Counted from the stretch's first letter, positions 52,212 through 52,777 are shown. The stretch is 64,000 bases of DNA from Escherichia coli (GCF_050920415.1 NZ_CP169309.1), one strand, 5' to 3'. A program made the numbers and translations. The notes: generated from the sequence alone by a model not told the origin.

Positions 52212-52277
52212 TCTCTTTCAAAAAGATAATCCAGGTTTCGCGCCTGGATTATCTGATTCAACCACGGAGGGTTGAAG

Positions 52278-52733
52278 ATGGCTAAATCCCGTTTCACAGA
52301 TAAGCAAATTGCTGAAATTTTACAGCAGTCAAAAGAGGGGGCATCTAATAAGGAGCTTTGTGAACACTATCAATTTAGCGTTAACACGCTGCGGCGCTGG
52401 CAAGAACAGCACGCTGACGGCATCAGAAGCGAATTAAAAAAAATAGAATCTAAAGCACAGATCGTCTTTCTGCTTTTCATTGCTATCGTCATTATACTCA
52501 CGCTTATATTTGGTAAACCTACAGGTGGATGGGCAATACCGCCTTTATTACTCTATTGTGTTTATTATATCCGCCTGTATCGCAACATCTCCGCCAGACA
52601 TATAAAAAAAGAAGACATTTTTCTCTCTCGTTCTGTTAATAACAGCTATAGCGCCCTTTATAATTTGAGCTGGACGTTTATTTGTTTTTTTATTTTTGCA
52701 GTAATCTATTTTTTTATTCAAGTGTTTTCGTAA
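52278..52733 (+). CDS. Hypothetical protein: transposase-like HTH N-terminus joined to a hydrophobic (2-3 predicted transmembrane helices) C-terminus
   Basis: ATG at 52278 preceded by GGAGG (52266-52270); residues SRFTDKQIAEILQQSKEGASNKELCEHYQFSVNTLRRWQEQ resemble IS3-family OrfA-type HTH; second half very AT-rich and hydrophobic. Confidence 0.4.
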   Translation: MAKSRFTDKQIAEILQQSKEGASNKELCEHYQFSVNTLRRWQEQHADGIRSELKKIESKAQIVFLLFIAIVIILTLIFGKPTGGWAIPPLLLYCVYYIRLYRNISARHIKKEDIFLSRSVNNSYSALYNLSWTFICFFIFAVIYFFIQVFS

Positions 52734-52777
52734 CAGACTGACCTGAAAGAGTATTTCAGGCCAGCTTCATCACTTGC

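Follow-up and report, generated by a model that had tools for sequence, protein, structure and literature searches.

Membrane-bound one-component regulators that carry a helix-turn-helix (HTH) domain are an established class, and a survey of transmembrane transcription regulators places in it multi-pass members without a large sensor, such as BcrR (PMC10269533). The same survey counts HTH_Tnp_1 among the rare DNA-binding domains of predicted members (45 proteins, 0.09%), and the two HTH_Tnp_1 entries taken from the survey tables are complete transposases (PMC10269533). Here we analyzed a 64,000-nucleotide stretch of Escherichia coli DNA (GCF_050920415.1, NZ_CP169309.1), which at its full length is referred to as the window. 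Between ridA and mgtA it carries a 151-codon open reading frame (ORF), called X below, that joins an HTH of this type to a predicted membrane module. X is already present in the databases, where it is misnamed and uncharacterized. We favor, with moderate confidence, the reading that X is a vertically inherited and often lost enterobacterial gene, and that its product is an inner-membrane protein composed of an IS3-OrfA-type HTH and a module of three transmembrane (TM) helices, that is, a membrane-tethered DNA-binding protein and not a transposase.

Among the regulators in this survey, ToxR, TcpP, CadC, VtrA and others resemble X in having a cytoplasmic N-terminal DNA-binding domain that is tethered to the membrane within one polypeptide (PMC10269533), an arrangement that for X is predicted. 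X combines a recognized DNA-binding domain and at least one predicted TM helix in a single polypeptide. These regulators have an OmpR-type winged helix, a single TM helix and, in the periplasm, a sensor domain of considerable size, whereas X has an OrfA-type HTH that a very short linker joins to three predicted TM helices, with hardly any of the protein in the periplasm. Of the regulators reviewed in the survey, BcrR of Enterococcus faecalis is the closest to X in design (PMC10269533). It differs in its XRE-type HTH, its four TM helices and its position next to its target operon, bcrABD, and it has no sequence relationship to X; unlike for BcrR, no candidate target operon is evident for X. BcrR is a bacitracin sensor in which an N-terminal HTH is followed by several TM helices without a separate sensor domain, and its input is received at or in the membrane. 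Judging from the survey, the architecture of X does not appear to have been described before (PMC10269533).

Domain architecture and origin of the two halves

The initial annotation had described a 151-codon ORF with a good Shine-Dalgarno (SD) sequence between ridA and mgtA, an HTH resembling that of IS3 OrfA at the N-terminus, and a hydrophobic, AT-rich C-terminal half. The coordinates, the codon count and the position of the SD sequence were correct (Table 1), and the HTH likeness held in a profile search, in which Pfam HTH_Tnp_1 gave the best match (Table 1) and HTH_23 (E = 2.8e-5) and HTH_28 (E = 1e-3) matched more weakly. HTH_Tnp_1 was detected in 17 of 19 members of the X family. The N-terminal ~57 residues are collinear with IS3 OrfA (InsA-type, PF01527) along the pattern M.K.RFT.EQI..IL.Q...G....LC.......T...W. 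Residues 1-59 align from Met1 onward with OrfA-like proteins (best NCBIfam match, an IS3-family transposase), with 30% identity over a 100-residue BLASTP alignment, and the alignment extends beyond the HTH into the first part of the next helix (SELKKIE versus SDIKRLRE). In real OrfA proteins (IS911/IS3) the corresponding helix is the leucine zipper. X differs from OrfA in that it lacks the leucine zipper, in whose place three predicted membrane helices are found, and in that it has neither a frameshift site nor orfB/DDE.

Beyond the HTH, X had no significant match in Pfam, NCBIfam, PHROGs, PADLOC or the PDB sequences. The hydrophobic, AT-rich character of the C-terminal half was borne out: G+C is 43% in the first 55 codons and 34% in the remainder (37% for the whole ORF, compared to 53% for ridA and mgtA), and three hydrophobic segments are present (Table 1). 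An AlphaFold2 model built from 19 diverse sequences (pLDDT 75.8, pTM 0.62) contained helices at residues 8-19, 24-31, 35-78, 80-85, 87-106 and 126-150; an earlier run with eight close sequences was poor (pLDDT 60.6). The HTH helices are those at 8-19, 24-31 and 35 onward, the third of which runs unbroken into TM1 in the model, and the modeled helices 35-78, 80-106 and 126-150 agree with three membrane helices.

From these features we infer that X would adopt an N-in/C-out topology with three spans. The loop between TM2 and TM3 would be cytoplasmic by the positive-inside rule, because residues 99-127, which comprise the end of TM2 and this loop, are net basic (six K+R versus two D+E). The periplasmic parts would then consist of the six-residue TM1-TM2 loop (GKPTGG) and a tail of zero to three residues, the C-terminus coinciding with the end of TM3. 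The linker between the HTH and TM1 is about 10-13 residues long. A dedicated sensor domain was not found, as there was no Pfam or NCBIfam domain outside the HTH and the predicted periplasmic parts are minimal.

Searches with X against the PDB gave no profile sequence match, and by fold nothing under E = 0.8, the hits being generic HTH proteins only. The hits of an AFDB50 fold search were family members, each bearing the name 'transposase', plus two small membrane proteins, and none of them is characterized. A PADLOC match to 'DrmC' (E = 5e-4) covered the HTH only and was set aside as a generic HTH match; the PHROGs matches were likewise to generic HTH families only (transposase, small terminase).

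The membrane half has relatives of its own. Residues 39-139 of X matched a 115-residue Yersinia kristensenii protein that has no HTH (WP_219646210.1, P0047) with 29% identity (BLASTP E = 6e-11), and the same protein was recovered in a profile search of 1.84 billion proteins at E = 7e-4. By fold, small membrane proteins of Hafnia and Yersinia (A0A4Q9ENN4, A0A0T9Q8S0) matched X with target-normalized TM-scores of 0.68-0.73. These stand-alone three-TM proteins share with X the loop motif [FY]R..S.[RK]F....E...[IL].R; they lack the HTH, do not adjoin ridA and are equally uncharacterized. The simplest history suggested by these alignments is that an OrfA-type HTH became fused to a pre-existing three-TM module. 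In Y. kristensenii (L013, positions 2200-3720), the DNA upstream of P0047 codes for no more than pieces of an ABC-transporter permease, which look like a MacB-like pseudogene split over several ORFs, and a 410-residue protein with a leucine-rich-repeat-like look lies downstream.

Selection, distribution and linkage to ridA

Among five Escherichia alleles of X, dN/dS was 0.15-0.26 for the whole gene, 0.11-0.27 for codons 1-55 and 0.16-0.36 for codons 56-151. Both halves of X are under purifying selection. X is not a chance ORF, because at least six genera preserve its reading frame and length and its dN/dS is about 0.2. In the same Escherichia genomes, dS was 0.25-0.38 for X, 0.14-0.29 for ridA and 0.19-0.63 for pyrI, values that fit co-divergence of X with its flanks and not a recent arrival. 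The codon composition follows the host outside Escherichia, with a GC3 of 0.60 in Klebsiella and 0.66 in Phytobacter massiliensis, and is low in Escherichia (0.34-0.38).

The protein has evolved quickly, with 41-56% identity between genera where RidA has 93-95%. Conservation is uneven along its length: the mean share of the commonest residue is 0.81 in the HTH, 0.72 in the linker, 0.70 in the TM2-TM3 loop and 0.53-0.55 in TM1 and TM3, so that the loop is the second-best conserved region apart from the HTH and linker. In the 19-sequence alignment W41, H45, L53, R102, R118, Y128 and W132 are invariant, along with the initiator M1. L38, R39 and R40 in the third HTH helix, just before the invariant W41, are nearly invariant, as are C94, Y97 and I98 in TM2 and S105, I109 and L116 in the loop.

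When 5.8 billion proteins were searched by word index, the close relatives of X were confined to Escherichia (E. coli, E. albertii and E. marmotae). Against 1.84 billion representatives, an exhaustive HMMER profile search returned 42 proteins at E up to 0.001, of which a handful were full-length relatives and the rest were ordinary OrfA-like HTH proteins that matched residues 1-57 only. Scanning one genome per species with two restrictive peptide patterns gave 13 loci, which is a lower bound: E. albertii, E. whittamii, another Escherichia species, Klebsiella spallanzanii, Superficieibacter (two), Citrobacter (three), 'Chryseobacterium' (one), Phytobacter (two) and Kosakonia. Klebsiella aerogenes and Pseudescherichia vulneris were added by the fold search. 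Within the C. freundii complex the Citrobacter form occurs commonly: a cluster look-up placed each of the listed member sequences on up to 290 contigs, and all named members of this cluster are called 'transposase'. Intact orthologues from Escherichia, Citrobacter, K. spallanzanii, Superficieibacter, Phytobacter and Kosakonia are 150-152 residues long.

The arrangement of these loci was determined by tblastn with RidA, PyrI, MgtA and X over 20 loci. At every locus that contained ridA, X was on the same strand, with 59-201 nt from the ridA stop to the X start. mgtA is the convergent neighbor in Escherichia, K. spallanzanii, some Citrobacter and Phytobacter/Kosakonia. In the C. freundii complex (L009) a dctPQM transporter lies between X and mgtA. 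Two Escherichia loci (L008, positions 3457-4137, and L023) have lost the mgtA-treRBC block, retaining about 30 codons of the mgtA 5' end followed by nrdD, and X is intact in L008; in a further Escherichia locus (L005, positions 4376-4500) mgtA is missing and a frameshifted X leads straight to treR. mgtA is absent next to an intact X in L017 and L020, and in Superficieibacter the locus contains no mgtA. Because mgtA is separated or gone at several X loci, the constant partner of X is ridA, not mgtA. The initial annotation had allowed for a strain-specific insertion; this was contradicted by the presence of X behind ridA in E. albertii, E. whittamii, further Escherichia lineages, the C. freundii complex, K. 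spallanzanii, Superficieibacter, Phytobacter and Kosakonia, and by a dS like that of ridA and pyrI.

Copies of X without ridA were limited to a paralogue in Citrobacter sp. 18056 and one short metagenomic contig. The paralogue (L025, positions 3989-4459) encodes 156 residues from a TTG start and lies away from ridA, in a variable region with an IS630-type transposase. The same paralogue sequence was matched by tblastn in a record labeled Chryseobacterium sp. 18061 from the same study (L024), which looks like contamination or mislabeling. A different arrangement was observed in Phytobacter diazotrophicus (L021, positions 3800-4000) and Kosakonia sp. S29 (L022), in which the resident ridA is followed by REP-like palindromes and then by a second ridA 3' end before X. 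This second end is 62 nt long, is identical to the resident gene at 51 of 62 positions, has its own TAA and lies directly 5' of X. In these two genomes X seems to have traveled, or to have been separated, together with a piece of ridA.

X is polymorphic in E. coli. Of 5,426 complete genomes, 5,424 matched the flanks, 440 matched the whole ridA-mgtA interval and 442 contained the X ORF (about 8%, with X absent from ~92%). The median was one place per genome, 442 of 443 places were chromosomal, and all places that were examined in detail lay between ridA and mgtA. Two alleles were distinguished: 42 genomes carry X at 99% identity or more to the window, and about 398, including the commensal SE11 and an O103:H2 strain, carry an allele near 92%. 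All E. coli matches listed bear the RefSeq name 'transposase', and an identical coding sequence is annotated in strain MFDS1022581.

The initial annotation had suggested that K-12 has no gene at this position, and comparison of the intervals agreed: derivatives of K-12 have, in place of X, a 205-bp spacer (L002, positions 1613-1817) made up of a ridA hairpin related to that in the window and two REP palindromes (BIME-like). A remnant of X in this spacer was sought and rejected, as apart from the ridA hairpin the spacer resembled the ORF no more than shuffled controls did. Loss or replacement in most lineages explains the polymorphism better than recent gain, because X occupies the same site behind ridA across genera and its silent-site divergence is like that of ridA and pyrI.

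Truncated or frameshifted alleles were recorded in E. coli, E. marmotae and another enterobacterium. In one enterobacterial lineage (L029, positions 4001-4441, and L030; also P0019, P0022 and P0026), X lies behind ridA with varied frameshifts and truncations in the membrane half, which suggests ongoing decay there; the frameshifted copies in L029 and L030 are of the P0016 type. A 'partial transposase' pseudogene in E. coli WB61 (L028, positions 2503-2589) was considered as a deletion intermediate and was not used, since the gap coincides with Ns in the assembly; this truncation is probably an assembly artifact and not a natural deletion.

Features of the locus and expression signals

The interval from the ridA stop codon (52209-52211) to the convergent mgtA stop codon (52778-52780, minus strand) measures 566 bp and is mostly taken up by X, whose own stop is 44 bp from that of mgtA. 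The features of the locus are listed in Table 1.

Table 1. Features of the ridA-X-mgtA locus, in window coordinates; TM helices, loop location and hairpins are predicted.
Feature	Position	Strand	Details
X coding sequence	52278..52733	+	151 codons, ATG at 52278, TAA ending at 52733; RefSeq WP_001130088.1, labeled 'transposase'
N-terminal HTH, IS3-OrfA type	52281..52430 (aa 2-51)	+	Pfam HTH_Tnp_1 (PF01527), E = 6e-9
TM1	52458..52514 (aa 61-79)	+	mean Kyte-Doolittle 2.96; sequence weakly conserved, hydrophobic throughout the family
TM2	52527..52577 (aa 84-100)	+	mean Kyte-Doolittle 1.16; AlphaFold2 helices 80-85 and 87-106; conserved YC..YI motif
TM2-TM3 basic loop, cytoplasmic	52578..52658 (aa 101-127)	+	motif [FY]R.[IV]S..HI..E...L.R....A.Y
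TM3	52659..52727 (aa 128-150)	+	mean Kyte-Doolittle 1.83; AlphaFold2 helix 126-150; Y128 and W132 invariant
SD sequence GGAGGG	52266..52271	+	within conserved CCAYGGAGGG box; GGAGG at 52266-52270, 7 nt before ATG
13-bp RNA hairpin (GATAATCCAGG...CCTGGATTATC)	52224..52254	+	no U-tract; ridA terminator or attenuator
Hairpin in X-mgtA gap	52735..52766	.	inverted repeat; no U-tract on either strand
ridA	51825..52211	+	from annotation; X always 3' of ridA, gap 66 nt here
mgtA	52778..55474	-	convergent neighbor of X; linkage not constant

The SD box is found 6-7 nt 5' of the ATG in ridA-linked X orthologues of all genera examined, with the exception of Citrobacter NCU1, which has GGAGCC. In the window a 7-bp hairpin (UUCAACC/GGUUGAA, 52257-52276) also takes up the SD sequence, partly into its loop and partly into its 3' arm, and could limit translation initiation; only two to four of its pairs look conserved in other genera.

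A promoter-like sequence (TTGGTA-17-TATAAT, 51759-51787) is present upstream of ridA, and no promoter-like site was found between ridA and X. The 73-nt ridA-X spacer with its 13-bp hairpin had a folding energy of -27.7 kcal/mol (z = -5.4). This stem persists in Escherichia, Klebsiella and Citrobacter, among which the inner part varies on both of its sides and a G.U variant occurs; Superficieibacter has a different GC-rich hairpin there instead. The palindrome GATAATCCAGG/CCTGGATTATC was considered as an operator for X and rejected, because the G.U-compatible variant, the stem changes on both sides, the replacement in Superficieibacter and the hairpin in X-less K-12 indicate that it behaves as an RNA hairpin of ridA. 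We infer that it is an RNA element of ridA that allows read-through.

The hairpin between X and mgtA folded at -12.7 kcal/mol on the plus strand (z = -2.5) and -17.2 kcal/mol on the minus strand (z = -2.9), and Rfam searches gave nothing real in 51700-52900. Elsewhere in the window, patches of low G+C at 16001-20000 and 42001-48000 (0.38-0.46, versus about 0.50-0.55 in the remainder) may be horizontally acquired segments.

Function of X and competing explanations

The name 'transposase' was assessed directly. X did not reach the cut-off of the NCBIfam IS3 transposase model NF033516 (17.1 bits versus 160), matching profile positions 2-46 of 369. No rve/DDE domain was matched in Pfam, and there is no orfB, nor does any other ORF fit in the 44-bp gap to mgtA. 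Terminal inverted repeats, which mark IS3 elements, were absent from 52150-52850, where only two local hairpins and A/T runs were seen, and no target duplication was present at the boundaries of X relative to K-12. X occurs as one copy at one fixed chromosomal locus, and at least six genera have it in the same position behind ridA. X is not a transposase, and it does not belong to a mobile element. Nor is it an IS remnant that is falling apart, since purifying selection acts on both halves. The initial suggestion of a domesticated IS remnant fits the data insofar as a domesticated IS-derived gene is meant.

That X is nonetheless a functionless relic, an orfA fragment left open, fused to AT-rich junk and slowly decaying, would account for its name in RefSeq and UniProt, its 37% G+C, its absence from most E. 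coli and the existence of truncated alleles. A relic of this kind would not be expected to show a dN/dS of about 0.2 in both halves, nor to keep its length and frame across at least six genera, in which identity falls to as little as 41%, together with its SD sequence and the motifs of a membrane half that also has a stand-alone homologue, and neither IS ends nor orfB are present. Selection and cross-genus conservation argue strongly against this explanation, which we consider highly improbable. X could instead be a small membrane protein that modulates another one, encoded nearby (the Mg2+ ATPase MgtA would be an example) or elsewhere, in the manner of MgtS or MgtR, with an HTH that serves protein binding or oligomerization as in RodZ, and not DNA. 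Small membrane proteins that control the stability of MgtA are known, and the convergent mgtA in Escherichia, K. spallanzanii, some Citrobacter and Phytobacter/Kosakonia, the short HTH-membrane linker and the conserved cytoplasmic loop would all suit such a role. The genomic coupling of MgtS/MgtR-type regulators to a Mg2+ transporter is not shared by X, however, which is intact where mgtA is not adjacent (L008, L017, L020) and where dctPQM separates the two (L009); its constant same-strand partner is ridA, and the L-R-R-W recognition helix, which is most conserved, is what would be expected of nucleic-acid contact. This possibility appears unlikely.

About equally doubtful is that X is an accessory conflict gene in a variable spacer, whether a membrane toxin, an abortive-infection or exclusion factor, or a domesticated OrfA that damps IS3-family transposition; true OrfA proteins bind IS ends and regulate transposition. 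Its patchy distribution, low G+C in Escherichia and fast protein evolution (set against that of RidA) point in this direction, as do the Citrobacter sp. 18056 paralogue in a variable island beside an IS630-type transposase and the weak PADLOC match to 'DrmC'. That match, however, is limited to the generic HTH, and no partner gene, such as an antitoxin or a defense operon, adjoins X. With its strict synteny to a housekeeping gene and its dS like that of the flanks, X looks more like a resident gene than like a mobile defense island, and GC3 tracks the host in Klebsiella and Phytobacter.

We return to the reading of X as an inherited, membrane-tethered DNA-binding protein, under which it would act like a transmembrane transcription regulator; the small membrane-anchored regulator that had been among the initial suggestions fits the evidence and remains plausible. 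Input would come from within the membrane or through a partner bound to the conserved cytoplasmic loop, and not through a periplasmic sensor, because almost nothing of X would be exposed to the periplasm. Pairing of the membrane helices would replace the leucine zipper that dimerizes true OrfA. X is most likely expressed by read-through of the hairpin after ridA, because there is no promoter-like site between the two genes and the hairpin has no U-tract, and it would be translated from the strong, conserved SD sequence.

Several observations weigh against this reading. Literature searches turned up no publication on X, and fold searches were uninformative outside family members. TM2 is moderately hydrophobic, so the three-TM topology is a prediction, and the short linker would put the HTH almost at the membrane surface, tighter than in ToxR or CadC. 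In a membrane protein an HTH can also have a protein-binding role, RodZ being an example. Inspection of the ridA-X spacers by eye revealed no operator-like DNA motif that is conserved near X; the sole palindrome upstream is RNA-hairpin-like and is not kept in all genera. X is also dispensable, being absent from about 92% of complete E. coli genomes, and some lineages often carry alleles with truncations or frameshifts (P0006-P0008, P0013, P0016, P0019, P0022, P0026).

A more far-reaching proposal, which we put forward tentatively, is that X represents a new, Enterobacteriaceae-restricted class of sensor-less, multi-pass membrane-tethered DNA-binding proteins, in which an IS3 OrfA HTH was domesticated onto a three-TM module that existed beforehand. 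Such a protein would be co-expressed with RidA, the reactive-enamine/imine deaminase, and might regulate genes or tether a chromosomal site to the membrane in response to a membrane-intrinsic or metabolic signal received via the conserved cytoplasmic loop.

All entries of the X family that were seen, from E. coli, E. albertii, the C. freundii complex and others, are labeled 'transposase', and the HTH-less relatives are labeled 'hypothetical protein'. The misannotation is of consequence wherever mobile elements are counted or pangenomes are studied. The stakes are moderate, given that X is dispensable. X nevertheless offers a clear natural case of a host membrane protein that has taken up the DNA-binding domain of a transposase, and it is of the rare sensor-less tethered HTH kind; since it is carried by about 8% of sequenced E. 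coli and is absent from K-12, its function is directly testable in carriers and in K-12.

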